Notes: generated by a model from the sequence alone, not told the origin. DNA of 64,000 nt from Escherichia coli (GCF_022846255.1 NZ_AP025682.1); one strand, 5' to 3'; counted from the first letter of the stretch, positions 13,267 to 36,082 are shown. Made by a program: numbers and translations.

Positions 13267-14178
13267 ATGGATGACTGTGGTGCGGTTTTGCATAATATTG
13301 AAACAAAATGGCTTTATGATTTTCTGACCCTGGAAAAATGCCGCAACTTTTCCCAGGCGGCAGTCAGTCGCAACGTCTCGCAACCAGCATTCAGCCGCCG
13401 CATCCGTGCGCTGGAACAGGCGATTGGTGTTGAATTGTTTAACCGCCAGGTAACGCCGCTGCAACTCTCAGAACAAGGGAAAATCTTCCATTCGCAGATC
13501 CGCCATCTGTTGCAACAGTTAGAGAGCAATCTGGCAGAGCTGCGTGGCGGCAGCGATTACGCGCAACGTAAAATCAAGATAGCCGCTGCACACTCTCTTT
13601 CCCTCGGTCTGTTACCGTCCATTATCAGCCAGATGCCGCCGCTCTTTACCTGGGCAATTGAAGCCATTGATGTCGATGAAGCGGTCGATAAACTGCGTGA
13701 AGGGCAAAGTGACTGTATTTTTTCCTTTCACGACGAAGATTTGCTGGAAGCGCCGTTTGACCACATCCGCTTATTTGAATCTCAATTGTTCCCCGTCTGC
13801 GCCAGTGACGAACACGGAGAAGCACTTTTTAACCTCGCTCAGCCACACTTTCCGTTACTGAATTACAGCCGCAACTCCTACATGGGGCGATTGATTAATC
13901 GCACCCTGACGCGCCACAGCGAGTTAAGTTTCAGCACCTTTTTTGTCTCTTCGATGAGCGAGCTATTAAAGCAGGTTGCCCTCGACGGCTGTGGGATTGC
14001 CTGGCTGCCGGAGTATGCCATCCAACAAGAAATTCGCAGCGGGCAGCTCGTTGTACTGAATCGGGACGAACTGGTGATCACGATTCAGGCCTATGCATAC
14101 CGGATGAATACCCGCATGAATCCAGTTGCCGAACGCTTCTGGCGTGAACTGCGCGAGCTGGAGATTGTGCTTAGCTGA
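13267..14178 (+). CDS. hypT: LysR-type transcriptional regulator (hypochlorite-responsive HypT)
   Basis: 303-aa LysR-family protein with an N-terminal HTH (FSQAAVSRNVSQPAFSRRIRALE). Confidence 0.9.
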   Translation: MDDCGAVLHNIETKWLYDFLTLEKCRNFSQAAVSRNVSQPAFSRRIRALEQAIGVELFNRQVTPLQLSEQGKIFHSQIRHLLQQLESNLAELRGGSDYAQRKIKIAAAHSLSLGLLPSIISQMPPLFTWAIEAIDVDEAVDKLREGQSDCIFSFHDEDLLEAPFDHIRLFESQLFPVCASDEHGEALFNLAQPHFPLLNYSRNSYMGRLINRTLTRHSELSFSTFFVSSMSELLKQVALDGCGIAWLPEYAIQQEIRSGQLVVLNRDELVITIQAYAYRMNTRMNPVAERFWRELRELEIVLS

Positions 14179-14213
14179 CATTATTCTGCAAAACATGGAA
14201 TTTTGACATTAAC

Positions 14214-14239
14214 GCCGGATGGAGATTAATCCATCCGGC
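14214..14239. terminator. 10-bp perfect inverted repeat (gccggatgga / tccatccggc) between convergent genes
   Basis: Hairpin read directly from the sequence between the hypT stop and the NhaC-like gene stop; no strong U-tract, so terminator function is uncertain. Confidence 0.35.
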
Positions 14240-14264
14240 AAACGCATTTATTATCTTGAATAAC

Positions 14265-15668
14265 TCAGGCCTTTGCTTCGTTGAAGCGCAGTAAACGGAA
14301 ACCTGTAGAAGCATAGATCAACGCAAATATCATCGAGCAGAAACAGAATACACAGTACGGCAAGTAACTAAACGTCGGCACGCCTAGTGTTGTCGCCATA
14401 TACAATCCGGCAGCTGACCACGGAATAATTGGCGCGCTCATGGTGCCAAAATCTTCCAGCGTTCGGGCTAAGACTAACGGTGATAAATTAAGATCTTCGA
14501 ATTTCTTCATCATCAATTCAGATATAACAATCTTATTCAAACCATCAGAACCGGTAAGTAAGTTAATGATGATCGCTAAAACACCGCTTGCCAGAATAGC
14601 GCCAAAGGCACTTTTTATTTTGTTTGCCGCACTTTGTAATGTGACATCCATCATTCCTGTTCCCGTCAGGATGCCAGCAAACATCATGGCGCAGATAATA
14701 AATGACAGGAATCCGCCCTGATTATTCAGGCCGCCTTGTTCAAGCAGTTCTTTCACAGAAGGTAACAGCGTCGTTGAATCAGTGATCATCGTCAGACGGA
14801 AACCACTCATTGTGGCCTTAATACCTTCGGCCAGCGGGAAACCTTGATACAGCCATCCAACCAATACGGCCACGAACGCACTGCTTAATAATGCCGGTAC
14901 TGTAGGCAAACGCAAAAAGGTAAAGCACAGAACAATAAGCATAGGCAGTAGCGGTAACAGACCAAACTTATATAACTCTTTGAGCTGTACCAGCATCTGC
15001 ATGCTTTCTGGTGAAATAGAGCCCGTAGAAGTATGAATCATTCCCAGCCAGGTAAAAAACAGCAGGCTAATAATCGTTGATGGGATGGTCGTCCAGAGTA
15101 GATATTTAATCAGATCATAAAGTTTAGTTTTGGTTACCGCTGAAGTCAGGTTAGTGGTATCACTTAACGGTGAAAGTTTGTCGCCAAAATAAGCCCCGGT
15201 AACAATGGCTGCCGCCAGAATTGGAAGATCGGCATGTAAGCCGGAACCGATGCCCATTAATGCAACACCAATAGAAGCGACAGATCCCCATGATGCCCCG
15301 GAAACATAGGACAATACTGCGTTCAGAAAAAACGCTATGGCATAAAGCCATGCGGGCGCAACCAGTAACATACCGTAATAAACCAGCATCGGCAGTGTAC
15401 CTGCATAGCTCCATGTCGCGACCATAAAGCCAACGAAAATAACGATAAGTACTGGTGCCATCACCGCCGAAATCTTATCGATAATAAACCCCTGGATTTC
15501 ATCCCAGGTATATTTCAGCTTAGCCATTGCAATAATGCAGGAAAACGCCGCTGAAATTAATAAACAGACGCTGGCAGGCCAGCCCATAACACCGATGCCA
15601 ACAACCAACACGATCATCATAAAAATGATCGGTGTAAGCGCGACATAAAAACTGGGTTTTTCTCTCAT
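14265..15668 (-). CDS. NhaC-family transporter (Na+/H+ antiporter or organic-acid antiporter superfamily)
   Basis: 467-aa polytopic membrane protein; 14-nt gap after the FAD oxidoreductase gene upstream on the same strand. Confidence 0.7.
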   Translation of the reverse strand: MREKPSFYVALTPIIFMMIVLVVGIGVMGWPASVCLLISAAFSCIIAMAKLKYTWDEIQGFIIDKISAVMAPVLIVIFVGFMVATWSYAGTLPMLVYYGMLLVAPAWLYAIAFFLNAVLSYVSGASWGSVASIGVALMGIGSGLHADLPILAAAIVTGAYFGDKLSPLSDTTNLTSAVTKTKLYDLIKYLLWTTIPSTIISLLFFTWLGMIHTSTGSISPESMQMLVQLKELYKFGLLPLLPMLIVLCFTFLRLPTVPALLSSAFVAVLVGWLYQGFPLAEGIKATMSGFRLTMITDSTTLLPSVKELLEQGGLNNQGGFLSFIICAMMFAGILTGTGMMDVTLQSAANKIKSAFGAILASGVLAIIINLLTGSDGLNKIVISELMMKKFEDLNLSPLVLARTLEDFGTMSAPIIPWSAAGLYMATTLGVPTFSYLPYCVFCFCSMIFALIYASTGFRLLRFNEAKA

Positions 15669-15682
15669 AACTTTATTCCCTG

Positions 15683-17053
15683 TTAAAAGACTTTTACGCC
15701 ATTTTGCTGTAAGCGTTCCTGTACCGTCTGAATATCTACCTGTGAAACGGTAGTGTTATTTTTAATGGCAATAGCAGCGGCAGTCCCTGCACCTTCTCCA
15801 GTGACAATACAACACCCCATATTACGGATTGTCGCGTAGGCGAAATTATCTGCATCGATTGCCCGTCCGCAAACCAACAGGTTTTCAACTTGCTGCGGAA
15901 TCATTACGCCATAAGGGATTTGAAAATAGTTCGCTTCAAGAGGTAATTTAAGATGACCATTTCCATCTATAAACTCAGGGAATACCCCTATTGAATCCGC
16001 ATGACGTCCCTCATTACAAATATCATTTTCAGTTAATTGTGTTCGCCCGAGAATATGTCTTGATTCCCTTGTTCCCACCGTCATACCGAAGTTTTTTAAT
16101 TGTGCCTGTTCAAATCCTGGCTGGAATTGACGCAACGCTTCTATCGCCTGCATGGCTTGTTTGCGGCCCTCTATTTCGGCACGCGTCAGGTCAAAAACAT
16201 CTGTACAATCAACGGCAGGGATGCTGACAACGTTCAAGTAATTCGCATCACCATACTCGGTGACCGTACTCCAGGAACCGCCTAATGTCACATCTTCAGG
16301 AATAATTCCTGCCGCCTTTCCTTTCGCAAAGACTTTACCCAGATAAGGGCTAAACATATCGCGACAAGATTCATGAACATCATAAGACCAGTTTTTATTT
16401 TCTTCATCCGCCCCCCAGTCTCCATATTTAGGTTCCGTGCTCTTAATATTTTGCATGAACGCGTTTTTATTTATATTTGCGCAACTAAAAACGGTTGTCA
16501 TACACATTAGCTCTTCGCGTTCACGCTTAATAAATGGTGCTCCGGCAAACCATGCAATATCAGCATCGCCAGTACAGTCAATAATGACATTTGCCAAAAT
16601 AGCCTGACGACCAGATTTACTCTCTGTTATTACGCCGAGTAAATTATTGCCCTGCTTGATAACATCAACGGCGGTAATGTGTAGTACGCGGCGCACACCT
16701 GCCTGTTCAAGCATTGCATCCGCAACCAGTTTGAAACGCTCGGCGTTAATAGCCTGACTATTCGATTGCGGCTCAGGGCTGGACGCCCCCATTGATTTTG
16801 CCGTTTCTTCTATTTCGCGTGCCAGTCCACCTGACTCTACCGTATTTTCATGACGCCACCAGGCAATTGACTCGACGCCAGCCGTTGTCATCATTCCGCC
16901 AAAACAACCGAAACGTTCAATCAGCATAGTAGCTGCGCCTTCACGAGCGGCACTCATTGCTGCGGCAATACCCGATGGACCACCACCAACAACTAACACT
17001 TCCGTGGTTGCCAGCACAGGTATATTACGAGCGGGTTCCAGATAAAATTCCAT
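15683..17053 (-). CDS. FAD-dependent oxidoreductase, paralogue A
   Basis: N-terminal dinucleotide-binding motif VLVVGGGPSGIAAA; ATG at 17051-17053 with a ggaga SD; paralogous to the ORF at 26207..27601 (shared motifs GGxLTxxGVESxAWxRH, CTGDADIA, FQIPYG). Confidence 0.8.
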   Translation of the reverse strand: MEFYLEPARNIPVLATTEVLVVGGGPSGIAAAMSAAREGAATMLIERFGCFGGMMTTAGVESIAWWRHENTVESGGLAREIEETAKSMGASSPEPQSNSQAINAERFKLVADAMLEQAGVRRVLHITAVDVIKQGNNLLGVITESKSGRQAILANVIIDCTGDADIAWFAGAPFIKREREELMCMTTVFSCANINKNAFMQNIKSTEPKYGDWGADEENKNWSYDVHESCRDMFSPYLGKVFAKGKAAGIIPEDVTLGGSWSTVTEYGDANYLNVVSIPAVDCTDVFDLTRAEIEGRKQAMQAIEALRQFQPGFEQAQLKNFGMTVGTRESRHILGRTQLTENDICNEGRHADSIGVFPEFIDGNGHLKLPLEANYFQIPYGVMIPQQVENLLVCGRAIDADNFAYATIRNMGCCIVTGEGAGTAAAIAIKNNTTVSQVDIQTVQERLQQNGVKVF

Positions 17054-17339
17054 ACTTTATCTCCGTATTCAATAATTGAGTAAAACAATCCCCCGCGCTT
17101 ATATAAGCGCGTTGATATTTTTAATTATTAACAAGCAACATCATGCTAATACAGACATACAAGGAGATCATCTCTCTTTGCCTGTTTTTTATTATTTCAG
17201 GAGTGTAAACACATTTTCCGCCTCCCTGGCTAATAACCACATTGGCATTTATGGAGCACATCACAATATTTCAATACCATTAAAGCACTGCACCAAAGTG
17301 AAACACTGCGACATTAAAATTATTTCAATTTGAAAAGCA

Positions 17340-19289
17340 TCAATCTGCATGCTCAACATTTGGATAGAGATTATAGATTTTAAGTTTGCGCCATAATGTT
17401 GTACGACCAATTTTTAATACTTCAGCTGCTTTAGTTAGATTCCATTCGCAGACACGACATGTATGCTCAATAGCTTGCATCTCCAATTCTGCCAGTGAAG
17501 TAAGATGAGGGATATCATCGTCGCCACTACTGTTATTTTGTCGGATATCCAGAGGAATATTCTCTAACCCGAGGACAAGTCGATTGCAGTTAATAAATAC
17601 CTTCTCCATTCGATTTTTGAACTCGGAGATGTTCCCAGGCCAACGGTACTCAAGCAGAACTGAATTTGCGTCAGGCGTGATTGTCATTTTTTTTCGAGTG
17701 CGCTCCTGATACTTATCAATAATATCGTCAATCATTTGCTTGAGATCTTCACGACGTTTGCGCAATGGCGGAATTTCAATTTCATTCATGGAGATCTCAT
17801 AATATAGCTGTCGGCTAAAAGCCCCTTGTTGCACGTACTCACGTAAAGAACTACTGGTACATGTAATCAGGCGAAAGCGTACGGGGATCAAACGATGGCT
17901 GTCTGAGCGAGTAACAAGCCCCGTTTTCAATACTTTCAATAAAACACTCTGAACTTCCCCTGATAGATATTCGACTTTATCCAGATATAAGGTGCCATTA
18001 TGAGCCAGTTCAAATTTCGATGGCGAAGGGCCAACATCAGAGCCAAGAAGTTCGTGTAAGATATTTTCTGGTGATAGCATCTGACAATCTACAGAAATAA
18101 ATGGCCCATCACGTTGCTCGCTCTCATTATGTATTGCCATCGCCAAACTCAATTTTCCCACACCTTCTTCGCCATTGATCAAAATCGGAGAGATGGATTT
18201 AATTGCCCGGCGAGCGATAAGTAATACCTGCTTCATACCACCTGAAGCCGCATGTAAACTGTCAAAGGTAAAATTTGCATTAGTGCTTATTTGCTGTTGG
18301 GCTATTTTCCTGATTTTGTCTAATGGATGAAGAAAAAGCAAAAACGAACCATCGCTTAACGGGCGAAGGGTAACCATAAGTTCAATAAATTCGCCACGGC
18401 ATTCGAGGACAATTTGCTTTTGCGATAGTTTGTTTCGTTGTGTAATTGCCTCATTCAAAATCGGCGGAAATACGAATCCTTTTCGGATGTTCTGACCAAT
18501 TAAACTTTCTTTATCAATATTCAGTAATGTTTGTGCTTGAGAATTAACCATCGTAATTAAAGAATGACTATTCCAACAAATAAAACCGTCATCCATACAT
18601 TCAATCACAGCATTATGCTGGCAAAGTACTTTGTTTATTAACTTTTGTTCATTCTCAATATAGATATAATTAGCGATTTCTGTTGCACATGAATATGATG
18701 TTTTTAATTTAACAAGCTCGGCGGTGGTTTCAATTATACATACAATGTATCCATGTATATTACCATAATAATCAATGACCGGAGCTGCGCTCATCGCATA
18801 ACAATGTAGCTGTTCACTAAAATGTTCTGCTCCTTCCAGTTGTGTATATAAATTTGTTTCCCGACAAAGACTATATACATTGGTTCCAATGCCATCTTCG
18901 GCCCATGACATACCAGATTCAATTCCTAACTCTCGCAATTGACTGGAATAATCGCCTGCTGCATTCAACGATAGAACCCAGCCGTGTGGGTCAATGATCA
19001 AAAATGCCAACCGGTCGTCACCAGCCAGGGTGAAATGGTCTTCAACAACTCTTTGTGAAATTCTAATAAACTCTTCGTTACGAGAAAAAATCGTCTGCAA
19101 TGTTTGCCCGGAAGCTTTGACAGGCGTGTTCCAGTGGCGAGGGTCACAATGCTTGAGACATTTTTGCCATGACCTCAGCATCACATGATTAGTCGAATTT
19201 GTCGCGACCCAACCATGCTTAACAAACATTTTCCATTTATTTTTTAGATCATTATGATACGACTCTTTATTCATTATAATAATATCCAT
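17340..19289 (-). CDS. DhaR-type transcriptional activator (sensory N-terminal region + AAA+ domain + C-terminal HTH) lacking the GAFTGA sigma-54 contact motif
   Basis: AAA+ Walker A GEEGVGK, ...HNESEQRDGPFISVDC..., C-terminal Fis-type HTH (IGRTTLWRKLK). The usual GAFTGA position reads GSDVGPSPSKFE, as in DhaR-like regulators that act with sigma-70. Confidence 0.8.
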   Translation of the reverse strand: MDIIIMNKESYHNDLKNKWKMFVKHGWVATNSTNHVMLRSWQKCLKHCDPRHWNTPVKASGQTLQTIFSRNEEFIRISQRVVEDHFTLAGDDRLAFLIIDPHGWVLSLNAAGDYSSQLRELGIESGMSWAEDGIGTNVYSLCRETNLYTQLEGAEHFSEQLHCYAMSAAPVIDYYGNIHGYIVCIIETTAELVKLKTSYSCATEIANYIYIENEQKLINKVLCQHNAVIECMDDGFICWNSHSLITMVNSQAQTLLNIDKESLIGQNIRKGFVFPPILNEAITQRNKLSQKQIVLECRGEFIELMVTLRPLSDGSFLLFLHPLDKIRKIAQQQISTNANFTFDSLHAASGGMKQVLLIARRAIKSISPILINGEEGVGKLSLAMAIHNESEQRDGPFISVDCQMLSPENILHELLGSDVGPSPSKFELAHNGTLYLDKVEYLSGEVQSVLLKVLKTGLVTRSDSHRLIPVRFRLITCTSSSLREYVQQGAFSRQLYYEISMNEIEIPPLRKRREDLKQMIDDIIDKYQERTRKKMTITPDANSVLLEYRWPGNISEFKNRMEKVFINCNRLVLGLENIPLDIRQNNSSGDDDIPHLTSLAELEMQAIEHTCRVCEWNLTKAAEVLKIGRTTLWRKLKIYNLYPNVEHAD

Positions 19290-19667
19290 TCAAGTCATTT
19301 TCAGAACTTGTATCAGAATGCTATGCCAGTAAGCTTGATCAAACGCAATAATATCTAGCCTGGATCATTACAAAAACAGACCTTATCAACAATGTAATCA
19401 CACATACATTAGAAATAATAACCGTTAAAGCAATAAAAAACGAATGATACATTAGATAAATTTTAAAACTGCCAACAACATCTGAAATCTTTGCGTTTGA
19501 TATTTATAATTATTCAAACTGAAACAACACAGGCATACGAGTTGTTTCACTGTGAAACAGTGCAGCGAAATTTGTTCTGCCCTTTTATTTCCTCAAAGAT
19601 ATTTCATCGTTAAATTCCAAAATTGACTGACTATTCAACTCAGCGTAAATATCAGGAGAAATAATGT

Positions 19668-21407
19668 ATGGCGAGGATGCGTGCAATCGAAGCTGCAGTA
19701 GAAATACTGAAAAAAGAAGGCATTAGCGTTGCTTTTGGTGTACCCGGCGCAGCAATAAACCCACTCTATGCCGCGATGAAAAAATCAGGCGGTATTGATC
19801 ATATTCTGGCCCGTCATGTTGAGGGCGCCTCGCATATGGCTGAAGGTTACACCCGCAGTCAGAATGGCAATATTGGCGTGTGTATTGGCACATCAGGCCC
19901 TGCGGGCACTGATATGATTACCGGGCTGTATTCTGCCTCTGCGGATTCCATTCCTATTCTCTGCATTACTGGTCAAGCTCCCGTAGGAAAACTTCATAAA
20001 GAAGATTTCCAGGCCGTCGATATTGAGGCTATCGCCACGCCAGTAACCAAAATGGCTCGCACAATTCTCGAAGCGGGTCAGTTGCCGGGGATATTCCAGA
20101 AAGCCTTCTGGGAAATGCGTTCAGGCCGCCCTGGCCCGGTTCTTTTAGATCTCCCTTTTGATGTTCAGATGACCGAAATTGAGTTTGATATCGATCTCTA
20201 TCAGCCACTCACTCCCTGGAAACCCCAGGCGACGCTGGCCCAGGCCGTACGCGCATTAGAAATGCTAAATGACGCCGAAAAGCCCGTCATCATCGCTGGC
20301 GGTGGCATTATTAACGCCGAAGCGAGTGAATTGTTGCGTGAGTTTGTCGAGTTAACTGGCGTTCCCGTCATTCAAACCTTACGCGGTTGGGGCGCTTTAT
20401 CAGACGATCACCCCCTAATGATTGGTCGCATGGGATGTCAGGCGGGTCATCGCTATGGTAACGCCAGTTATCTGGCCTCAGATTTTGTTTTTGGTATCGG
20501 TAACCGTTGGGCAAACCGCCATACCGGAGCCATTGAGACCTACACCGAAGGCCGCAAATTCATTCATGTTGATATCGAACCTGCACAAATTGGCCGGATA
20601 TTTGCGCCGGATCTGGGCATTGTTTCTGATGCTGAAAGCGCCTTAACGCTATTTATTCAGGTCGCCCGTGATATGAAGTCACGTGGAGAACTGAAAGACC
20701 GCAGTCGCTGGATTGCCGAATGTGCCGAGCGTAAACGCACAATGCTTCGTCGTTCAGACTTTGACTGCAATCCAATTAAACCGCAGCGCGTGTATCACGA
20801 AATGAATAAGGTTTTCGGACCGGAGACACGCTATATTTCGACAATTGGTCTGGCGCAAATCGCCGCAAACCAATTTTTACATGTTTACCGCCCACGCCAC
20901 TGGATTAATGCCTGTCAGGCTGGGCCGCTAGGCTGGACAATGCCCGCAGCACTGGGCGCGGTAAAAGCTGATCCATCTGTTCCCGTTGTGGCAATATCCG
21001 GTGATTACGATTTTCAGTTCTTGATTGAAGAATTAGCCGTCGGCGCACAATTTAATCTTCCGTATATCCATATTTTACTTAACAACGCTTATCTTGGTTT
21101 GATTCGTCAATCACAACGTGCATTTGATATTGATTATTGCGTTCAACTGTCATTTGAAAATATTAATGCTCCAGAAATTAATGGTTATGGCGTTGATCAT
21201 AAAGCTGTGGTTGAAGGATTAGGATGTAAAGCGATTCGCGTATTCGCATCACAGGATATTGCGCCTGCACTGCAAGAAGCCCAGCGTTTGCGTGACGAAT
21301 TTCACGTACCTGTTGTTGTGGAAATTATTACTGAACGCGTGACTAATATCGCTATGGGACCTGACATTAATAAAGTCACAGAATTTGAAGAAATTCTCGA
21401 TTTATAA
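19668..21407 (+). CDS. gcl: Glyoxylate carboligase-like thiamine-diphosphate enzyme
   Basis: 579-aa TPP enzyme whose N-terminal region (GVPGAAINP...[19 protein letters not shown]...[32 protein letters not shown]) closely resembles Gcl as I recall it; followed by hyi-, glxR- and glxK-like genes. The symbol denotes a paralogue, not necessarily the allantoin-regulon gcl. Confidence 0.75.
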
Positions 21408-21419
21408 GGAAACAGGATT

Positions 21420-22202
21420 ATGGCAAAGTTTGCAGCAAATTTATCTATGCTCTTTACCGAGTATCCATTTATTGAACGTTTTGCACAAGCAAGTCACGCA
21501 GGATTCCACGGCGTTGAGTATCTTTTCCCCTATGACTTTTCCGCAGATGAGTTGGTTTCGCAACTGCATCAACATAATCTGACGCAGGTTCTGTTTAATC
21601 TTCCTGCGGGTAACTGGCAAGAGGGTGAACGGGGTATTGCATGTCATCCTGGTCGGGCAAAAGAATTTCAGGAGGGCGTTTCCAGGGCAATAGAGTATGC
21701 ATTGGCCCTTAATTGTTCACAAGTTAATTGCCTTGCAGGAAAACATCCAGGTGGTTATTCGCATGAACAATGTCATGAAACACTGGTCGAAAATTTGCGC
21801 TATGCAGTAGATAAATTGGCTTCTCATGGCATAAAGTTAGTTCTGGAAGCCATTAATACAAAAGATATTCCCGGTTTTTTTGTTAACAACACCAGACAAG
21901 CTCTCAATATTATTCATGATGTAAATCATCCTGATTTTCGCTATCAATACGATATTTATCATATGCAAATCATGGAAGGGAATATTGCTACAACAATCAA
22001 AAACAACCTGAATAACATTGGACATATTCAATTAGCCGATAACCCTGGGCGTCATGAACCAGGGACGGGAGAAATTAATTACCCGTGGTTGTTAAATTAT
22101 ATAGACCAGATTGGTTATCAGGGATGGATTGGTTGCGAATATGTTCCATCTACGACAACGACTGAAAGTCTACGCTGGCTAAAAAACGAGACTCAATTTT
22201 AA
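21420..22202 (+). CDS. hyi: Hydroxypyruvate isomerase-like TIM-barrel protein
   Basis: 260 aa with N-terminal FAANLSMLFTEYPF and Hyi-like motifs (GEINYP, GWIGCEY); 12-nt gap after the gcl-like gene. Confidence 0.75.
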   Translation: MAKFAANLSMLFTEYPFIERFAQASHAGFHGVEYLFPYDFSADELVSQLHQHNLTQVLFNLPAGNWQEGERGIACHPGRAKEFQEGVSRAIEYALALNCSQVNCLAGKHPGGYSHEQCHETLVENLRYAVDKLASHGIKLVLEAINTKDIPGFFVNNTRQALNIIHDVNHPDFRYQYDIYHMQIMEGNIATTIKNNLNNIGHIQLADNPGRHEPGTGEINYPWLLNYIDQIGYQGWIGCEYVPSTTTTESLRWLKNETQF

Positions 22203-22219
22203 TCCCTGAGGTATTTATC

Positions 22220-23107
22220 ATGAATATTGGATTTATCGGCACCGGCATAATGGGTAAGCCGATGGCTTATAATTTACAACAAGCCGGACATACTCTTTAT
22301 TTTTCAGCGCATTTTGAACCTGCACCGCAAGAGCTTATTGGTGAACGTGGCATTGTTTGCTCTACACCGCGTGAAGTCGCGCAGGAGTGTGAGGTCATCA
22401 TCACCATGCTCCCTGATACCCCACATGTTGAGGATGTTCTTTTTCATCCCAACTATGGCGTAATACACGGTTTAAGCCACGGGAAAATTGTGATTGATAT
22501 GAGTTCAATTTCCCCGGTTGCCACCAAAGCATTTGCACAACGTATTATCGCGGGAGGCGCGGAATATATCGATGCGCCCGTCTCTGGCGGTGAAGTTGGC
22601 GCGAAAGCCGGGACGCTTTCCATTATGGTTGGCGGATGTGAAGAGGTTTATTTGCAGATCAAACCGATTCTGGAATTGATGGGTAAAAATATCACTCTGG
22701 TCGGTAACGTCGGTGATGGTCAAACGTGCAAAGTCGCTAACCAAATTATTGTTGCACTGAATATTGAAGCGGTGGCTGAAGCCCTGCTCTTTGCCAGTAA
22801 ATCAGGTGCCGATCCCGCCCGCGTACGTGAAGCGCTGATGGGAGGGTTTGCCTCCTCTCGCGTGCTGGAAGTTCATGGCGAACGGATGATTAAAGGAACA
22901 TTCGAACCCGGTTTTCGTATTAGTCTGCATCAAAAAGATCTGAATCTGGCGCTGGAGAATGCCCGCCTGTTGAATACCCCGCTTCCTAACACGGCGACGA
23001 CACAGCAGTTATTTAGCGCCTGCGCCGCGCTCGGTGGTAAAGAGTGGGATCATTCTGCGTTAATTCGGGCGCTTGAAACACAAGCCAATTTCACTATCCG
23101 TAAATAA
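22220..23107 (+). CDS. glxR: Tartronate semialdehyde reductase / 3-hydroxyisobutyrate dehydrogenase-family NAD(P) oxidoreductase
   Basis: N-terminal Rossmann motif GFIGTGIMG and conserved GDGQTCKVANQIIVALNIEAV...MGGFASSRVLEVHGERMIK block. Confidence 0.75.
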   Translation: MNIGFIGTGIMGKPMAYNLQQAGHTLYFSAHFEPAPQELIGERGIVCSTPREVAQECEVIITMLPDTPHVEDVLFHPNYGVIHGLSHGKIVIDMSSISPVATKAFAQRIIAGGAEYIDAPVSGGEVGAKAGTLSIMVGGCEEVYLQIKPILELMGKNITLVGNVGDGQTCKVANQIIVALNIEAVAEALLFASKSGADPARVREALMGGFASSRVLEVHGERMIKGTFEPGFRISLHQKDLNLALENARLLNTPLPNTATTQQLFSACAALGGKEWDHSALIRALETQANFTIRK

Positions 23108-23181
23108 TGAATTAAGGGAACCACCGGTTCCCTTCGTTCACTCATTGCCCTGCCCCATTCCCCTATTTTGAGAGACCTGCT

Positions 23182-24324
23182 ATGAAGATAGTTATCTCCC
23201 CCGACTCCTTTAAAGAATGCCTTCCTGCATGGAAAGTCGCCGAAGCGCTGGCAACCGGCTGGCGCAAGGTCCTGCCTGGCAGCCAACTGGTGTGTTTGCC
23301 CGTGGCTGATGGCGGCGAAGGCACGCTCGAAACACTCATTCATGCGACTGACGGTACGTTTTACACTAAAAAAGTCACCGGACCGCTTGGCGAATCAATA
23401 CATGCGCAATACGGTATTTTAGGCAACCAAACCACCGCAGTGATAGAACTGGCACAAGCTTCAGGGCTGGAACTGGTTTCTCCTGTCCAGCGTTCTCCCC
23501 TTTATACGACGTCGTTTGGCACTGGCGAACTTATTCTCGCCGCCCTGGAACACAATATTGATACCGTTATTCTATGCCTGGGTGGCAGTGCTACAAATGA
23601 TGGCGGTATTGGGTTGATGTCGGCACTTGGCGCATCGTTTACAGACGCCGAAGGGCTATCAGTCTCTGTTAATGGGATGGGGCTGGCGGCAATTCACCAC
23701 ATTGACTTACAGCACCTCGATCCACGATTGAAAAATGTGAAATTTATTGCGGCCTGTGATGTCACCAACCCACTAACCGGCGATAACGGCGCGACCCGGG
23801 TTTTTGCTCAACAAAAAGGGGCCAGTGCTAACGACCTTGAGCAACTGGAACAGGGAATGAAAAACTATGCCCGTTGCATCTACCGTTGTTGTGGTAAAGA
23901 CGTCGATACGATACCCGGTTCTGGGGCGGCTGGCGGCGTTGGCGCGGCCTTGATGGCTTTTCTCGATGCTCGCTTACAACCGGGTATTTCGCTCGTGCTG
24001 GAAGCGATTCAATATACCCAACATTTAAAATACGCAGCATTGGCCATTGTCGGTGAAGGGAAATTAGATAGTCAGAGCCTGAATGGCAAAGCGCCCGTAG
24101 GCGCAGCCAAAGTTGCCCAGATGATGGGCGTTCCGGTTATCGCAATTGCCGGGTATATCGATGATCAACTTGATCTGAATGAGTTACGCCAGTGTGGAAT
24201 AGAAGCCTGTTTTTCCGTCGTCAATGGTCCTTGTGATTTCCCCACCGCGCTGAGTCAGGGAGAAAATAATTTAATTCGTCTTGGGGAAAATCTGGCGGGA
24301 TATTTTCGTGCGATCCTGAGTTAA
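23182..24324 (+). CDS. glxK: Glycerate kinase
   Basis: 380-aa glycerate kinase-family protein (MKIVISPDSFKE...LPVADGGEGT...); last gene of the gcl-hyi-glxR-glxK operon. Confidence 0.75.
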   Translation: MKIVISPDSFKECLPAWKVAEALATGWRKVLPGSQLVCLPVADGGEGTLETLIHATDGTFYTKKVTGPLGESIHAQYGILGNQTTAVIELAQASGLELVSPVQRSPLYTTSFGTGELILAALEHNIDTVILCLGGSATNDGGIGLMSALGASFTDAEGLSVSVNGMGLAAIHHIDLQHLDPRLKNVKFIAACDVTNPLTGDNGATRVFAQQKGASANDLEQLEQGMKNYARCIYRCCGKDVDTIPGSGAAGGVGAALMAFLDARLQPGISLVLEAIQYTQHLKYAALAIVGEGKLDSQSLNGKAPVGAAKVAQMMGVPVIAIAGYIDDQLDLNELRQCGIEACFSVVNGPCDFPTALSQGENNLIRLGENLAGYFRAILS

Positions 24325-24379
24325 TTCCCGTTCGTTAAAATGCCCGATAATGCAAATTACCGGGCATTCCTGAATATCA

Positions 24380-25906
24380 TTATTCATCTCTCGCGGTTTT
24401 CTCTTCAGCCGCAAGCTGTGTCAAAAAACTCTTCAATAAAATAAACACTACGCCGCAAAGCGGTAGTCCGGCCAGGATAGAGACCGTTTGTAGCGGCTGC
24501 AAACTCTGCGCATCAAGAAGATAGAGTGTGATGGCGACGATTCCAGTCATAATCAACCAAAATGCCACGTTCCAGAATGCCGGTTCACTCTCACTATCTG
24601 CCCGTTTTTGCGTCGCAAAACCGAGGGCATAACCCACAGTACAGTGTCCGGTAATATATGAAATTAATGCTATAGCCCCAAAAGCAACCAAAAACACCTG
24701 ACTTGCGGGTAGCTGCTCCAGTAAACGAGAAACGACAACGCCTCGCCCTTGTTCGTTAAGTATGGGAACAAAATCGATGACATGAGTTGTCTGCAACGAT
24801 AAGCCGAAATTAGCCAGTACCATGTAAAAAAACATGCATCCCAATGAACCTGCCAGAGCTCCACATACAATCAATTGCCGGATCGTCCTTCCTTTTGAAA
24901 TACGGGCGATAAATAAACCGAATGGGATGGCATACACGACCCACCATGAAAAATAAAATACGGTCCACATCTGTGGAAATCCGCTACGACCAATAGCATC
25001 GGTACTTAAACTCATCGCTACAAAATTTTGCAGCATCAGGCCGAGACCATCAATTGATTGATTAAGTATAAATGCCGTTGGTCCACAAATCAGTATTGCA
25101 AGTAGCATCAAAATGTCAGCACGAATATTCCAGTTACTGGCCCATGCCACACCTTTTTTAAGTCCAAAAAAGAGAATGAATAATGGCACTAGCGTCCAGA
25201 TAAAAATAACCATGACATTGATAAACTGCCCGGCAGGATCCAGATGAAACACATGGCAAAATACGGCAGAAATCATCGGCGTTCCCAGCGCCAGAGACGT
25301 TACCGCGCCGCCGAGCAAACCAAACATGTAGAAAAAATTCACACAATGCCCGCAAAAACCATCCGCACGCGCTCCCAAACATCCACGACATAAATCACTG
25401 ACCTTTAATGAGTTTGTTTTCTTAACATGCATAAACCAACCAATAGGAACGGCACAAATCAGATACCACGCCCATGCGGACGGCCCCCAATGGAACATGC
25501 CATAAGCAGAGGCCCAACGAGCAGCCTGAGCGCTTCCTGCTGTTGCGCCAAAAGGCGGTTGCTGAATGATCCAAATCCACTCTACAGAGGCCAGATATAA
25601 CAAGCTGCCCCCCGTTCCAGAAGTAAAAATAAGTCCAAGCCAGGTTAACAAGCTGAAGTCAGGTTTTTCTCCCGACTGACCTAACAAGATATCGCCATAA
25701 CGTGAGAAGGCCAGCCACAGACAACAAAGTACAACCAGAAAAATCCCGCCCATTTCCCAGGTTAAAAAATGATGTATTTTATTTATATACCGGCTGGTAT
25801 CTTGTGGATATATCGTCAAACACAGAATGATTACCGCAATAAATAATATTGCTGGGATAAACACATTCAGTTCAATCAAAGAAAAGCGTTTTTTTAAATA
25901 TTGCAT
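24380..25906 (-). CDS. BCCT-family transporter (betaine/carnitine/choline type)
   Basis: Polytopic protein with a BCCT-like signature (WTVFYFSWWVVYAIPFGLFIARISKGRTIRQ). The start is placed at the internal ATG 25904-25906, which has an aggag SD; the track ORF extends to 26032. Confidence 0.7.
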   Translation of the reverse strand: MQYLKKRFSLIELNVFIPAILFIAVIILCLTIYPQDTSRYINKIHHFLTWEMGGIFLVVLCCLWLAFSRYGDILLGQSGEKPDFSLLTWLGLIFTSGTGGSLLYLASVEWIWIIQQPPFGATAGSAQAARWASAYGMFHWGPSAWAWYLICAVPIGWFMHVKKTNSLKVSDLCRGCLGARADGFCGHCVNFFYMFGLLGGAVTSLALGTPMISAVFCHVFHLDPAGQFINVMVIFIWTLVPLFILFFGLKKGVAWASNWNIRADILMLLAILICGPTAFILNQSIDGLGLMLQNFVAMSLSTDAIGRSGFPQMWTVFYFSWWVVYAIPFGLFIARISKGRTIRQLIVCGALAGSLGCMFFYMVLANFGLSLQTTHVIDFVPILNEQGRGVVVSRLLEQLPASQVFLVAFGAIALISYITGHCTVGYALGFATQKRADSESEPAFWNVAFWLIMTGIVAITLYLLDAQSLQPLQTVSILAGLPLCGVVFILLKSFLTQLAAEEKTARDE

Positions 25907-25929
25907 TTCAGTCTCCTGAATGTTTTCAT

Positions 25930-26154
25930 TCAATGAGGACGAATATTTCGCCGTTCCTTTTTCATGTGTTGCAATTGTCGGGAAAGGCGTAAAGAAAAAA
26001 AGGCGCAAATAAGTGAAAGAGCCGCAATACAATACAGAGCTAAACCACGCTGATGCTGTTGCAGCATGAACAGGAATATCCCCAAAAAGAGGCCGCAGAG
26101 AACTGTGGTTATCCAGTAATTGGCACTTAAGTGCTCCAGGTCATCATCCCTCAT
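25930..26154 (-). CDS. Small 2-TM membrane protein (74 aa) immediately upstream of the BCCT transporter gene
   Basis: ATG at 26152-26154 (reverse strand) preceded by aggaga; stop 23 nt before the BCCT start; two hydrophobic helices. Codon-by-codon reading places this ORF on the minus strand although the supplied track labels it +. Confidence 0.5.
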   Translation of the reverse strand: MRDDDLEHLSANYWITTVLCGLFLGIFLFMLQQHQRGLALYCIAALSLICAFFSLRLSRQLQHMKKERRNIRPH

Positions 26155-26206
26155 GGTCTTTCTCCTGCAAGGCGCAGACAGGCTTTCAGCTCTCTGCGCC
26201 TTGTTG

Positions 26207-27601
26207 TTATGCCAGACGTACGCCCTGCTGTTGCAGCGTGTTTTGCAAATCAGGGATAGCAACCTGACGCACGGTGCAATTTTGCTGTAGCGAAACCACG
26301 GCGGCAGTACCTGCGGCCTCACCGGTAACGGCACAACACATCATGTTACGCATAGAAGTATGTGCAACTACGCCTGCGGAAATACAGCGACCGGCGACCA
26401 AAAGGTTCTCCACTTTTTGCGGCACCAGACAACCATAAGGGATCTGAAAGAAACGCCCGGTCGTTGGCAAAATGAGATAACCGGAACCATCAATAAATTC
26501 CGGGAAAATCCCTACACTGTCCGAACAACGCCCCTGATTAAGGACGTAATCATCAGCAATACGTATTTCCCCCTCAATAAGCCGTGATTCACGCGTCCCC
26601 AGCGTGGCACCAAAATTGCGTAACCGTACATTTTCAAAGCCCGGAACATAATGGCGTAGAGCGTCAATTGCCCATAATGCTTGCTGCCTTCCGGCAATCT
26701 CAGCTTTGGTTAAATCGAAGACATCGGTACAGTCAAAACCAAAGGCGTACACCATATTCATCTGGAAAGCCTCACCGCTTTCAGAAAAGGTCGACCAGGT
26801 TCCGGCAATCGCCTGGGCGTCACCTGGAATCACACCATCCTGTTGCGCGCGGGTAAAAATATCCTCCATATACGGGCTAAACATCGGGTCTTCTTTACCC
26901 GTGGTTTGAATCGTCCAGTTTTTGCCCCAATCCGCGTAGGTCGGCTTAAGTTCTTCCGCAACAAAACGGTTAAAGCGTGCCACATCAACACCTGCGCAAC
27001 TGAACATCACGGTGACGCCCATCAGTTGGTCCTTGCTCCGTTTCGTCCAGGGCGCGCCTGCACGAGCGGCAATATCAGCATCCCCCGTGCAATCGACGAT
27101 TCTTTTCGCCAGAATTGCCCCTCGACCTGATTTATTCTCGACGATAACACCGCATAACGTATTCCCGTCCTTGATCACGTCCACAACCCAGGAGTGATAT
27201 AACGGCTCAACGCCAGATTCCGTAATCATCTGATCGGCGACAACTTTAAATCCTTCAGTATCTATAACTTCGCTAATTGACTGAGGTTCTGGTCGTGTGA
27301 AGCCCAATGCTCGCGCGCGGCCTTCATATTCACGACAAATCCCTTCACAATCTTCCGTCCCCGGATGGCGATACCAGGCAAAACTTTCCACACCAACCTG
27401 CGTCAATACGCCGCCTAGTGAGCCGTAACGCTCAACAATCATGGTTCTGGCACCTAGCCGCCCCGCCGCTATCGCCGCCGTTAATCCTGCCGGACCGCCC
27501 CCGATAACCAGAACGTCCGTTTGTGCAATGACTGGCGTTTGCCGTGCACTTTCATTAATCATGTCCACCATTGGTTCCCCCGTCAGATTCAGGATGCGCA
27601 A
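26207..27601 (-). CDS. FAD-dependent oxidoreductase, paralogue B
   Basis: N-terminal VLVIGGGPAGLTAA FAD-binding motif; paralogue of 15683..17053. The start may be one of the downstream in-frame ATGs, because 27589..27601 overlaps the MFS gene. Confidence 0.8.
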   Translation of the reverse strand: MRILNLTGEPMVDMINESARQTPVIAQTDVLVIGGGPAGLTAAIAAGRLGARTMIVERYGSLGGVLTQVGVESFAWYRHPGTEDCEGICREYEGRARALGFTRPEPQSISEVIDTEGFKVVADQMITESGVEPLYHSWVVDVIKDGNTLCGVIVENKSGRGAILAKRIVDCTGDADIAARAGAPWTKRSKDQLMGVTVMFSCAGVDVARFNRFVAEELKPTYADWGKNWTIQTTGKEDPMFSPYMEDIFTRAQQDGVIPGDAQAIAGTWSTFSESGEAFQMNMVYAFGFDCTDVFDLTKAEIAGRQQALWAIDALRHYVPGFENVRLRNFGATLGTRESRLIEGEIRIADDYVLNQGRCSDSVGIFPEFIDGSGYLILPTTGRFFQIPYGCLVPQKVENLLVAGRCISAGVVAHTSMRNMMCCAVTGEAAGTAAVVSLQQNCTVRQVAIPDLQNTLQQQGVRLA

Positions 27602-28857
27602 TCCGCATTGTTTTGAGTGATTTCATTGACTTGATTTTTACTTTTACGATTCACACGCTGGAGGACCAGTGCGGCGATAAGGCCGATGAATGCGCAAACC
27701 AACATGAACAGGAAAACATCCTGATAACCGGCAATACCCGGTTTGCGGTCGACCATATTGCCCACCATCGTGTAGCAGTAGATTTCCGGGAAATAGGTCA
27801 GTAAAGAGATCAGACCCGCAGCAGTCCCTGTGACTTTTGCCGGGATCCGAACCTCATCAATAATTGAGAAGAACACGGCATTCGCAGAGTAAATAAACAC
27901 GCCCAACGCAACCATATTCGCCAGCGCAATAGTGACGTAGCGCGACTCACCGGGCAGGAAGAAATAAACGGTAGTAAAGACAATCATGCCGATAAAGGCG
28001 TAAATCATAAAACGCGTGCGTGACGCACAGCGGTCGGCCAGTTGTCCGCCAATTAATCCCCCCATCGCAAATAACACATAGGCGCGAAGAATACTGGCAA
28101 CTGCCACTTCCGATTCGCCCATATGCAGGATCTGCGTGAGATACGGCGTGACCATGCCAAAGCCGATATAAATTGACCACATACAAAAGGTCACAACACC
28201 TGCCAGCCAAACCGTCGGCATTTTCAGCACGAATGCCATATCTGCCAGACGGAAATTCGCTTTATCTTCGCTGTGCGTTTCATCCTGACAAACAAACCAG
28301 GCTAAAACACCGGCCAGAATAGTCACTACGGAATAAAAAATAATTGTCGCCCGTAAACCATCAACACCTTCGCCAAATTTGGCAAATACCGGCACGGAAA
28401 GAAATCCCAGTACAATGGAGGTTAATCCCTTACCCAGAAACCAGTAACCGTATAAGCGACCTTGTTCTTCGCTGGTTCCCAGGGTACGAATAATTCGCAC
28501 ACACACGGCCCAAAACGTAAATACGGTTGTAACAGCCCAAAGTGCATGTAACAAACAGATCATGGTATACGAGGGGAAGGTCGCATAATAAAAACCACTT
28601 ATCCCGGTGGAAATTAATGAAAAGGTCATTAATTTACGTGCAGAAAATCTATCGGCAGCCCAACCGCCAGGTAGATATAATAAAAAGTTCACCAGACCAT
28701 AGGCTGTCATTAGAAAACCAAGTTCAGCATTAGTCGCTCCTGTAGCCTGCTGCATCGCGTCGTAATAGGTTTCCCGTAAATAAGGCAATTTATATATTGC
28801 ACTTCCGGCAATACCACATAACGCCAGCGTGATCCAACGTTTCCAGTTACTGGTCAT
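27589..28857 (-). CDS. MFS transporter
   Basis: 422-aa 12-TM-type protein; first transporter of the gldA-like / MFS / FAD-oxidoreductase / BCCT minus-strand gene string. Confidence 0.75.
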   Translation of the reverse strand: MTSNWKRWITLALCGIAGSAIYKLPYLRETYYDAMQQATGATNAELGFLMTAYGLVNFLLYLPGGWAADRFSARKLMTFSLISTGISGFYYATFPSYTMICLLHALWAVTTVFTFWAVCVRIIRTLGTSEEQGRLYGYWFLGKGLTSIVLGFLSVPVFAKFGEGVDGLRATIIFYSVVTILAGVLAWFVCQDETHSEDKANFRLADMAFVLKMPTVWLAGVVTFCMWSIYIGFGMVTPYLTQILHMGESEVAVASILRAYVLFAMGGLIGGQLADRCASRTRFMIYAFIGMIVFTTVYFFLPGESRYVTIALANMVALGVFIYSANAVFFSIIDEVRIPAKVTGTAAGLISLLTYFPEIYCYTMVGNMVDRKPGIAGYQDVFLFMLVCAFIGLIAALVLQRVNRKSKNQVNEITQNNADCAS

Positions 28858-28922
28858 ATTTATTCCCGAATGAAGTATTTAAAATGACACCAACGGCCTG
28901 CTTTGCACAGGCCGTATTATTT

Positions 28923-30005
28923 TTAAAGTCCCAAATGATGTGCAGTTAAAATTGCACAAAGAACGTCCTGCGCTGTTACTACGAATGGCATATTATGGAT
29001 AGTTTCCCCTTCAGCAGTCGCGGCTTTAGCCACTGCCCGTAATTTATCTTTATTAATTTCCTTCACGCCTAACATATGAAGATTTGTCGGCAAGCCAACG
29101 CTATGGCAGAAATTGAGTACGGTTTCAATTTCCTCCTGTGGTGCGTTTTCCAGTACGAGCTGTACCAGGACGCCAAATGCCACTTTTTCACCGTGGTAGC
29201 AATGATGGCATTCCTCCAGTTGCGTCATGCCGTTATGAATGGCATGAGCTGCCGCCAGGCCGCTACTTTCAAATCCAATGCCGCTAAGATAGGTATTAGC
29301 TTCGATAATATTCTCTACCGCTTTGGTGCTAACACCTTGTTCAACCGCGACTTTTGCCTTATAGCCATCTTCCAGTAGCGTGGTATAACAGAGTCGGGCA
29401 ATAGCCAGTGCCGCCAGTGTCGACGCCCCACCTGCCATTGTGGCTTTTCCTGACGCCTGATTGGCTCTCGCCTCAAACCAGGTTGACAATGCATCTCCCA
29501 TACCGGCCACCAGCAGACGCACTGGCGCGGCTGAAATGACGCCAGTATCCATAATCACCATATCCGGGTTTTTCGGGAAAAACAGATATTCGCTAAACTG
29601 ACCTTCCGGGGTGTAAATTACCGCCAGAGAACTGGTTGGCGCATCTGTGGAAGCAATTGTCGGCACCACCACCACCGGAATTTTTTGGTAATACGCTACG
29701 GCTTTTGCCGTATCCAACGTTTTACCGCCGCCAATACCAATAACGACATTATATTTACGCTGATTAAATTTCTCACGAATTCGAGAAATTTCATTTTGCG
29801 AGCATTCACCACAAAAGATATCAAAATCTGCAGTAATATTTTCTTTTGCAAAGCTCTGGCTTACTCTGTCACCCACCAGACCGGTCACAAATTCATCTGC
29901 AATAATTAATGGTTCTGTTCCCAAACTCGCCGCATATGTAGCAATATTATCCAGAGAACCATTTCCCTGGATATATTTAGCCGGACTTATAATAATCTTA
30001 TCCAT
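28923..30005 (-). CDS. gldA: Glycerol dehydrogenase-like iron-containing/group III polyol dehydrogenase
   Basis: 360 aa with GldA/DhaD-family motifs (GGGKTLDTAKA, metal-binding His cluster); divergent from dhaKLM. Symbol denotes a paralogue. Confidence 0.75.
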   Translation of the reverse strand: MDKIIISPAKYIQGNGSLDNIATYAASLGTEPLIIADEFVTGLVGDRVSQSFAKENITADFDIFCGECSQNEISRIREKFNQRKYNVVIGIGGGKTLDTAKAVAYYQKIPVVVVPTIASTDAPTSSLAVIYTPEGQFSEYLFFPKNPDMVIMDTGVISAAPVRLLVAGMGDALSTWFEARANQASGKATMAGGASTLAALAIARLCYTTLLEDGYKAKVAVEQGVSTKAVENIIEANTYLSGIGFESSGLAAAHAIHNGMTQLEECHHCYHGEKVAFGVLVQLVLENAPQEEIETVLNFCHSVGLPTNLHMLGVKEINKDKLRAVAKAATAEGETIHNMPFVVTAQDVLCAILTAHHLGL

Positions 30006-30324
30006 ATCATTCCTCGCGTAACTTGTTTTGCTTCACTGTTAACCTACTCGTTGCATCCAGTAGCGGCAAACATTTCATTCGCGAAAAATTATGTTTTATG
30101 ATCGCGCTGTAAAAAACATCATCTGCAGATGATAATAAAAAACACTTTTCATGCCTTAATCACAATATATCAATATCCACGCTGGTCCCATTTCATTTTG
30201 GAACAACACAATGAATTAACTGTTTCATTATGAATCTTATTATCGTGCGATTTGTTTTATTGCGGCTGGAGAATTAATCTCGCAAGCATATTTAGCGCGA
30301 TTTACGTAATTTATCAGAACAGGA

Positions 30325-31395: not shown

Positions 31396-31407
31396 TAAGG
31401 ACATTAT

Positions 31408-32040: not shown

Positions 32041-32043
32041 ATT

Positions 32044-34425: not shown

Positions 34426-34434
34426 TTGTGACCT

Positions 34435-34463
34435 AACGCGATACGTCTTGCGCGTATCGCGTT
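34435..34463. terminator. 11-bp stem hairpin (aacgcgatacg / cgtatcgcgtt) between the convergent dhaM-like and iraD genes
   Basis: Perfect inverted repeat 10 nt after the dhaM-like stop, followed by ttt; plausible factor-independent terminator. Confidence 0.45.
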
Positions 34464-34472
34464 TCCCGTCAT

Positions 34473-36043: not shown

Positions 36044-36082
36044 GGTGTTGTGTCCGTTAGGTGCGGTTAATCAAATTTTTTC

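Follow-up and report, generated by a model that had tools for sequence, protein, structure and literature searches.

The stretch of DNA analysed here, hereafter the window, is a 64,000-nucleotide (nt) segment of the Escherichia coli sequence NZ_AP025682.1 (GCF_022846255.1), read as one strand. It carries two genes for flavin adenine dinucleotide (FAD)-dependent oxidoreductases, ibeA and cglE, each of which lies next to transporter genes of a different family. The region 14179..34470, which includes both genes, is the GimA island of extraintestinal pathogenic E. coli (ExPEC); the locus, ibeA and cglE are already known. This region is 20.3 kb long, with a G+C content of 0.462 as compared with 0.517 for the left flank. 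It is bordered by hypT (yjiE; 13267..14178, HypT equivalog, 693 bits) on one side and by iraD (yjiD) on the other, iraD coming after the ptsP-like gene in an annotated copy of 99.4% identity. When the stretch 14000..30100 was compared by megablast with complete E. coli genomes, it was matched in its entirety at 99.4% identity, and 246 of the 5,426 genomes carried it at a coverage of at least 80%. In the literature, GimA measures 20.3 kb with 46.2% G+C, comprises the operons ptnIPKC, cglDTEC, gcxKRCI and ibeRAT, and is credited with 14 or 15 genes (PMC2878320; PMC4359115). By gene content and strand, the four-operon layout predicted for the window is that of GimA, with the first flavoprotein gene belonging to operon ibeRAT and the second standing at the cglE position of cglDTEC. 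Genes within the same-strand runs are separated by 14 to 65 nt, except for a gap of 286 nt between ibeR and ibeA. Since promoter-like sites were not enriched over shuffled sequences, the promoter scan was not used to define operons.

Both flavoprotein genes are on the minus strand. The gene ibeA (15683..17053) encodes a 456-amino-acid (aa) protein and cglE (26207..27571) a protein of 454 aa. The original prediction, made from the sequence alone, had described them as diverged paralogues, and pairwise alignment and Pfam assignment agreed with it. IbeA and CglE share 232 identities over 452 positions in BLASTP (51%, with 70% positives, E 7e-171), which is far beyond chance. Both cover model positions 1-416 of 416 of the Pfam family PF12831 (FAD_oxidored; E 3.2e-93 for IbeA, over its full length, and E 2.4e-97 for CglE), so that they are not unrelated flavoproteins. 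The GxGxxG dinucleotide-binding motif is N-terminal in both (VVGGGPSG and VIGGGPAG), and the match of other flavoprotein families to either protein is limited to this region. In a 16-sequence family alignment, the IbeA/CglE subfamily was tight, with a mean column identity of 70%. Because all invariant columns of this alignment are kept in both proteins, neither gene looks like a pseudogene, which had been named as an objection. A repeat search of the window found nothing beyond the similarity of the two paralogues at the coding level.

The coordinates first given for ibeA stood, while those for the second gene ran to 27601, an upstream TTG that would encode 464 aa and make cglE overlap the gene for a major facilitator superfamily (MFS) transporter. 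The start of cglE is most likely the ATG at 27571, which is preceded by a Shine-Dalgarno-like sequence (GGGGAA), lies 17 nt past the stop codon of the MFS gene and is also the start annotated in the RefSeq copy. IbeA is 99% identical to P0001, and RefSeq names its product 'putative intracellular survival FAD-dependent oxidoreductase IbeA'. According to PMC12940985, which cites Paris et al. 2024, IbeA is a homodimeric FAD-binding protein.

The transporter neighbours of the two genes are as originally described. The gene ibeT (14265..15668, minus strand), 14 nt downstream of ibeA, encodes a membrane transporter of the NhaC family (TIGR00931, 379.9 bits, cut-off 370; nhaC in RefSeq) that is 60% identical to the product of the NhaC-type gene in a cluster of Vibrio jasicida. 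Downstream of cglE, cglC (24380..25906, minus strand; 508 aa from the ATG at 25906) encodes a transporter of the betaine/choline/carnitine (BCCT) family, with scores below the cut-offs of both TIGR00842 (354.5 bits) and the CaiT model (385.6 bits). Upstream of cglE lies cglT (27589..28857, minus strand), which encodes a 422-aa MFS transporter with weak subfamily matches only (PgtP, 58 bits; DgoT-type, 50 bits) and 82% identity to the MFS protein encoded beside gldA in Serratia sp. S1B.

In order to place these pairings, neighbourhoods with 10-kb flanks were compared by clustering of 91 sequence sets (90 fetched loci and the window region) and by a neighbour-joining tree. The protein search yielded three tiers of relatives: IbeA orthologues of 68-93% identity in E. 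albertii, Citrobacter, Pluralibacter, Serratia, Photobacterium and Vibrio; a very large set of about 52% identity in marine Alpha- and Gammaproteobacteria, Chloroflexi and Desulfobacteraceae; and, among the matches listed in the genome scan, relatives of about 30% identity in Bacteroidota, Clostridia and Streptomyces. The tree contains three clades with one transporter type each. The IbeA-type clade (E. coli, Serratia sp. S1B, Photobacterium, V. jasicida) has an adjacent NhaC-type transporter gene. In the CglE-type clade (V. jasicida, Photobacterium, Vibrio sp. VB16, Pseudovibrio/Polycladidibacter stylochi, Endozoicomonas), a BCCT gene lies directly upstream, and the BCCT-linked orthologues from Vibrio, Photobacterium, Pseudovibrio and Endozoicomonas are 67-78% identical to the E. 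coli protein. The third, 459-aa-type clade (Citrobacter sp. NCU1 and P. stylochi L016) is followed directly downstream by a gene for a 466-471-aa MFS protein. These pairings were found in loci L002/L003, L004, L010, L011, L016, L091, L092 and L093. As three orthologous clades recur across genera, each with its own transporter type, the ibeA/cglE duplication is old and predates the spread of the genes among genera. The NhaC and BCCT pairings being conserved in other genera, dedicated uptake, as first proposed, is a reasonable inference. The idea that each enzyme has its own transporter operon held for the pairing but not for the autonomy of the operons, which lie together with gldA-dhaKLM, gcl-hyi-glxR-glxK and the gene for a DhaR-type regulator.

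Additional genes, absent from E. coli GimA, occur in the marine clusters. In V. jasicida, the NhaC-type gene is separated from ibeA by a PatB-family C-S lyase gene (309 bits, cut-off 340). A third PF12831 paralogue, distant at about 25% identity, is present in V. jasicida, Photobacterium, Vibrio sp. VB16 and P. stylochi L010; in the Vibrionaceae clusters (L002/L003 3546..11371; L092 6395..12982; L011 10001..13109) it measures 425-445 aa and is followed by a cyclophilin-like PF04126 protein.

The family members are also linked to two carbon pathways. The genes gldA-dhaKLM, for glycerol dehydrogenase and dihydroxyacetone (DHA) kinase, have one of the flavoprotein genes as a neighbour in seven lineages, namely E. 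coli, V. jasicida, Vibrio sp. VB16, Photobacterium, Serratia sp. S1B, Citrobacter sp. NCU1 and P. stylochi L016. The genes gcl-hyi-glxR, in some cases with a glycerate kinase gene, belong to the clusters of E. coli, Vibrio sp. VB16, Citrobacter sp. NCU1 and P. stylochi L016; at the end of the V. jasicida locus, no more than the start of a gcl-type gene is visible. In L016, the order on one strand is gcl-hyi-glxR-glycerate kinase-gldA-dhaKLM-FAD gene-MFS. The products of these cluster genes are 47-80% identical to their GimA counterparts. As the dha and gcl linkage to family members recurs across lineages, GimA is one version of a conserved metabolic cluster and did not arise as an E. coli invention. 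Only two exits are encoded by GimA, one from DHA (or glycerol/glyceraldehyde) to DHA phosphate and the other from glyoxylate through glycerate to phosphoglycerate.

More distant members point to a class of substrates. Members that are 46-49% identical to IbeA (L036 9151..12611; L018 4403..5986; L032 1458..7062) have small-amine or onium gene neighbours: the phosphonoacetaldehyde hydrolase PhnX (318.7 bits, cut-off 220) together with an MFS gene; a non-pyrrolysine MttB-family methyltransferase; or choline dehydrogenase BetA and betaine-aldehyde dehydrogenase BetB together with BCCT-like genes. PhnW/AGXT-like class V aminotransferase genes follow members about 54-57% identical to IbeA. What these contexts have in common is the metabolism of small amines, betaines or phosphonates, with conversion of a carbon adjacent to nitrogen into an aldehyde, and this suggests that the broad family acts on small amine, betaine or phosphonate compounds. 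Database searches with the proteins themselves were of less help. Neither flavoprotein came near any NCBIfam cut-off, and a PDB sequence search with IbeA, the third Vibrio paralogue and the cyclophilin-like protein gave FAD-motif matches or structural-genomics proteins only, with no IbeA entry. No substrate was proposed in the searchable literature, including that on cglE, on 'IbeA-like' proteins, on BCCT with gcl and DHA kinase and on the Ruegeria pomeroyi homologue SPO0708. IbeA was also considered as an amine oxidoreductase of the DAO family, and this was set aside: the DAO match covers residues 19-49 only (E 0.0045), and the PDB sequence matches end at about residue 65.

The pocket of the BCCT transporter gives a further indication of the substrate. 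The closest solved relative of CglC is the dimethylsulfoniopropionate (DMSP) importer DddT (325.7 bits), with CaiT behind it (233 bits). In DddT, the sulfonium is held by cation-pi contacts with W140, W320, W321 and Y324, and the carboxylate by a hydrogen bond with S204 (PMC13270143). In the alignment, these residues correspond to W140, W321, W322, Y325 and S204 of CglC, so that CglC has both the aromatic cation-pi box of transmembrane helices 4 and 8 and the carboxylate contact of onium BCCT transporters. As the box and the serine of DddT are conserved, CglC very probably carries an onium-carboxylate zwitterion. This pocket would not discriminate DMSP from betaines or carnitine.

Taken together, these features suggest the following scheme. 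IbeA and CglE would be cytoplasmic FAD enzymes of one old family, each oxidising a different small polar compound. The NhaC-type transporter IbeT would import the substrate of IbeA, and the BCCT transporter CglC, perhaps together with the MFS transporter CglT, that of CglE. The carbonyl products would then enter either a C3 route through glycerol dehydrogenase and phosphoenolpyruvate (PEP)-dependent DHA kinase, or a C2 to C3 route through glyoxylate carboligase, hydroxypyruvate isomerase, tartronate semialdehyde reductase and glycerate kinase. IbeR, encoded between the ibeA and gcl operons, probably controls the island. E. coli K-12 DhaR senses DHA through DhaK and DhaL, and by analogy IbeR probably ties expression to DHA flux. 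In this general form, that is, transporter-coupled catabolic flavoenzymes with separate substrates whose products feed the dha and gcl routes, the scheme seems to us somewhat more probable than improbable.

The nature of the substrates and of the reaction is less certain. The imported substrates of IbeA and CglE are probably onium or zwitterionic compounds, and that of CglE could be a zwitterion resembling betaine, DMSP or carnitine. Oxidation next to nitrogen or sulfur might free an aldehyde or ketone, such as glyoxylate or DHA/glyceraldehyde; this specific chemistry, an oxidation at the carbon next to the nitrogen or sulfur of an onium or zwitterionic osmolyte, is doubtful. The virulence and H2O2 phenotypes of ibeA would follow from the metabolism. 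The fullest form of the idea, which we consider possible but less likely than not, is that IbeA and CglE found a widespread class of transporter-coupled flavoenzymes that degrade osmolyte-like compounds of onium or zwitterionic nature (similar to betaine, DMSP or carnitine, or S-substituted amino acids) to DHA/glyceraldehyde and glyoxylate, that GimA belongs to a type of catabolic island also found in marine bacteria, Vibrio and Photobacterium among them, and that the invasion, fimbriation and H2O2 phenotypes are metabolic side-effects.

Three variants of this chemistry were considered and not retained. Gcl as a formaldehyde-condensing enzyme was dropped, its canonical partners Hyi, GlxR and glycerate kinase pointing to ordinary glyoxylate use. 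Glycerophosphodiesters as substrates would leave gcl and the onium pocket unexplained. The head group of the betaine lipid diacylglycerylcarboxyhydroxymethylcholine (DGCC), made of glycerol, glyoxylate and choline, fits the products, but acetal hydrolysis and not oxidation would be needed.

Several points weigh against the scheme. Quaternary ammonium and sulfonium groups lack the lone pair on which classical flavin amine oxidation depends, which would make the chemistry proposed here an unusual one, and we know of no single compound that accounts for both DHA and glyoxylate. The Serratia cluster has no gcl genes within 10 kb, and three genes of the Vibrio and Photobacterium clusters are missing from E. 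coli GimA, namely those for the third paralogue, the cyclophilin-like protein and, from V. jasicida alone, the PatB-type C-S lyase. The contexts of the members of 45-55% identity are heterogeneous. A Foldseek search of the PDB with the AlphaFold model returned generic two-domain flavoproteins (best template modelling (TM) score 0.47, about 10-15% identity), namely geranylgeranyl reductase, class A monooxygenases and halogenases, sarcosine oxidase beta and FixC, which are uninformative on the chemistry. The predicted local distance difference test (pLDDT) of the model is below 50 at residues 49-66, 343-381 and 398-411, loops that presumably include the active-site region. The searchable literature gives no enzyme activity or substrate for any PF12831 member. 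Finally, binding of IbeA to host vimentin and PSF is reported in many papers, as stated in their abstracts and summarised in PMC12940985.

This last point leads to the rival explanation that IbeA is primarily an invasin or adhesin, surface-exposed or released, which binds vimentin, PSF and Caspr1 and thereby promotes entry into brain endothelium, its flavoprotein fold and its gene neighbours being incidental. It can call on a large body of experiments in which ibeA mutants invaded less and recombinant IbeA bound vimentin and PSF, as given in abstracts, in PMC12940985 and in PMC2878320. The protein itself fits such a role poorly. Its N-terminus (MEFYLEPARNIPVLATTEVLVVGGGPSG) shows no signal-like or hydrophobic stretch, the IbeA sequence has no membrane-spanning segment (maximal Kyte-Doolittle score over 19 residues, 1.43), and signal peptide, membrane anchor and autotransporter- or usher-type export features are all absent from it. 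The FAD-binding Rossmann motif begins at residue 18, and the flavoprotein domain fills the whole length. Moreover, orthologues of 68-76% identity lie in catabolic clusters of Serratia sp. S1B, marine Vibrio and Photobacterium, all conserved residues are common to the paralogue CglE, and the RefSeq name is that of an intracellular FAD-dependent oxidoreductase. In the work of Flechard and colleagues from 2012, IbeA is reportedly located in the cytoplasm. We therefore hold a primary invasin function to be unlikely; a moonlighting surface role of IbeA is possible.

The original prediction had allowed for either two related substrates or two oxidation steps on one scaffold. In favour of successive oxidations of one imported compound by the two enzymes, E. 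coli, V. jasicida and Photobacterium have both genes in a single island or cluster, along with downstream genes common to the two. On the other hand, each gene adjoins its own transporter of a different family, and the clades split before the lineages exchanged the genes. Within the 10-kb flanks, modules also occur singly, with IbeA-NhaC only in Serratia sp. S1B and BCCT-CglE only in Vibrio sp. VB16, P. stylochi L010 and Endozoicomonas. Because the modules are found independently of each other, two separate substrates are favoured and two steps on one compound appear quite unlikely.

Another explanation is that the flavoproteins act directly on glycerol, glycerate or glycolate, as alternative glycerol or glycolate oxidases, and that the transporters import these compounds. 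Every other enzyme of the island works on C2 and C3 hydroxy or carbonyl acids and alcohols, and the MFS transporter is weakly similar to organic-anion carriers, both of which would suit this view. Against it, the BCCT transporter keeps a complete onium cation-pi box, whereas glycerol, glycerate and glycolate have no onium group; glycerol oxidation is already covered by GldA; and the distant members associate with amine, phosphonate and betaine genes. Direct use of these intermediates is thus very unlikely.

Least of all do we expect stress-defence enzymes, for example peroxide- or thiol-related reductases, despite the reported H2O2 sensitivity of ibeA, ibeR and double mutants (PMC4359115; PMC12940985), the citation in PMC12940985 of Flechard et al. 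2012 for a role of IbeA in H2O2 resistance, an invariant Cys-Cys pair (C414, C415) with a nearly invariant C50 in the family alignment, which counts weakly, and N-terminal matches to thioredoxin reductase and AhpF that are confined to the FAD-binding motif. The disulfide reductase matches fall within the first ~100 residues, mostly the first ~60, and far under the family cut-offs, no match to a second NAD(P)H-binding Rossmann motif was found, and the conserved pairing with solute transporters, dha and gcl genes would be unexpected for a peroxide defence enzyme, which makes this function highly improbable.

As a marker of virulence, IbeA is in worldwide use for meningitis-causing, avian and Crohn's-associated E. 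coli, and it has been known as an 'invasin' for 25 years. To specialists on ExPEC, the locus is textbook material, and the residual interest lies in the reaction of this much-cited marker. The conserved modules, the ties to DHA and glyoxylate metabolism and the onium-binding BCCT pocket make the function of IbeA testable with a short list of substrates. If the metabolic reading is true, the invasin literature would call for re-reading.

The remaining genes of the island encode the regulator and the two pathways. The gene ibeR (17340..19289, minus strand) encodes a DhaR-type transcriptional regulator (AAA+ with HTH_8; NF008485 DhaR equivalog, 985.8 bits, cut-off 551) that is 41-47% identical to regulators in the Vibrio clusters. 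In the 286-nt gap between ibeR and ibeA, 40 nt upstream of the ibeA start codon, lies a perfect 18-bp palindrome, CGCGCTTATATAAGCGCG (17094..17111), which could be an operator or an RNA hairpin. It had a single match in the window at up to 3 mismatches, with 0.05 expected by chance; since no second copy was present in the window, the idea that it is an operator shared between operons was dropped.

On the plus strand, gcl (19668..21407) is the first gene of the GimA3 operon and encodes glyoxylate carboligase (NF008431, 1076.9 bits, cut-off 791). It is followed by hyi (21420..22202) for hydroxypyruvate isomerase (TIGR03234, 388.5 bits, cut-off 353), glxR (22220..23107) for tartronate semialdehyde (2-hydroxy-3-oxopropionate) reductase (TIGR01505, 384.6 bits, cut-off 340.75) and a glycerate kinase gene (23182..24324; subfamily model TIGR00045, 547.1 bits, cut-off 168). 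Hyi also exceeds the cut-off of the model for the 2-oxo-tetronate isomerase OtnI (375.6 bits versus 325); as it passes two curated models, its substrate assignment is not unambiguous.

Between cglE and the BCCT gene, a 74-aa open reading frame (ORF; 25930..26154, minus strand; hypothetical protein in RefSeq) has AGGAGA 6 nt ahead of its ATG and encodes two hydrophobic, membrane-span-like stretches (maximal Kyte-Doolittle score over 19 residues, 2.24). Its product matches no NCBIfam family, and in Citrobacter sp. NCU1 a homologue of 42% identity (L093 9389..9604) is encoded immediately upstream of the gene for the flavoprotein. At the head of the cglDTEC operon, cglD (28923..30005, minus strand) encodes a GldA-type glycerol dehydrogenase (NF006941, 560.7 bits, cut-off 336), in agreement with the tentative assignment credited to Zhang et al. 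2009, as listed among the references of PMC4359115. The 65-nt gap between cglD and the MFS gene contains a G+C-rich hairpin, ACGGCCTG...CAGGCCGT, at 28893..28915, with only a weak T-run after it on the transcribed strand; it may be a partial terminator or a stabiliser within the cglDTEC operon.

The PEP-dependent DHA kinase of GimA1, the ptn operon (30325..34425, plus strand), is encoded by dhaK (30325..31395; TIGR02363, 460.4 bits, cut-off 406), dhaL (31408..32040; TIGR02365, 248.2 bits, cut-off 138) and dhaM (32044..34425; TIGR02364, 117.9 bits, cut-off 98). Equivalog matches to DhaR, DhaK, DhaL and DhaM are thus all present in the island, each over its cut-off. DhaM is fused to a full enzyme I of the phosphotransferase system (459.2 bits, cut-off 342) in a 793-aa EIIA-HPr-EI protein, and the same fusion occurs in all Vibrio, Serratia, Citrobacter and Pseudovibrio clusters examined. 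Because of this fusion to a complete enzyme I, the DHA kinase of the island may be independent of the general PtsI.

Beyond the island, the right flank (34391..52876) is about 99% identical to E. coli MS20657 over iraD, uxuR, uxuBA, gntP, the fim operon (fimH to fimB) and nanC-nanM. By this alignment, the low-G+C stretch at about 46-50 kb corresponds to fimA-fimE-fimB and the intergenic region up to nanC. Past 52876, the window is not syntenic with MS20657. Inactivation of ibeA and ibeT has been linked in published work to a lower expression of type 1 fimbriae.

As regards known systems, the two-domain FAD fold class of IbeA and CglE also includes the sarcosine oxidase beta subunit, dimethylglycine oxidase and the glycine oxidase ThiO, which were among the Foldseek matches. 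Those oxidases release glyoxylate or formaldehyde from small zwitterionic amines, and a glyoxylate-type product would suit the Gcl pathway. Unlike in the DAO-family oxidases, the similarity stops at the FAD-binding N-terminus; the TM-scores are 0.37-0.40, the Pfam family is another one, and the functional likeness comes from gene context only. The PF12831 family name gives no reaction, while IbeA and CglE form a tight subfamily with transporter-linked contexts of its own. CglC differs from CaiT and the betaine/choline transporters in scoring under their NCBIfam cut-offs, and from DddT in that the entry-path residue W105 is Leu in the alignment. The partner of CglC is a PF12831 flavoprotein, whereas those of DddT are the DMSP lyases dddD/dddX (PMC13270143).

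Compared with dhaR-dhaKLM and the allantoin-regulon genes gcl-hyi-glxR-glxK of E. coli K-12, the GimA proteins are alike in that each passes at least one NCBIfam cut-off for its family. Unlike the K-12 sets, the dha and gcl genes of GimA are second copies on an island, joined to each other and to the transporter-flavoprotein modules, and GimA DhaM forms a single 793-aa protein with a complete enzyme I. With GimA as described in RS218, APEC O1, UTI89 and BEN2908, the island shares the yjiD/iraD-yjiE/hypT site, the size of 20.3 kb and the G+C content of 46.2%, as well as gene content, order and strands, with 99.4% DNA identity to annotated E. coli copies. There is no material difference from the published GimA; the window and RefSeq also show the 74-aa ORF between cglE and the BCCT gene.

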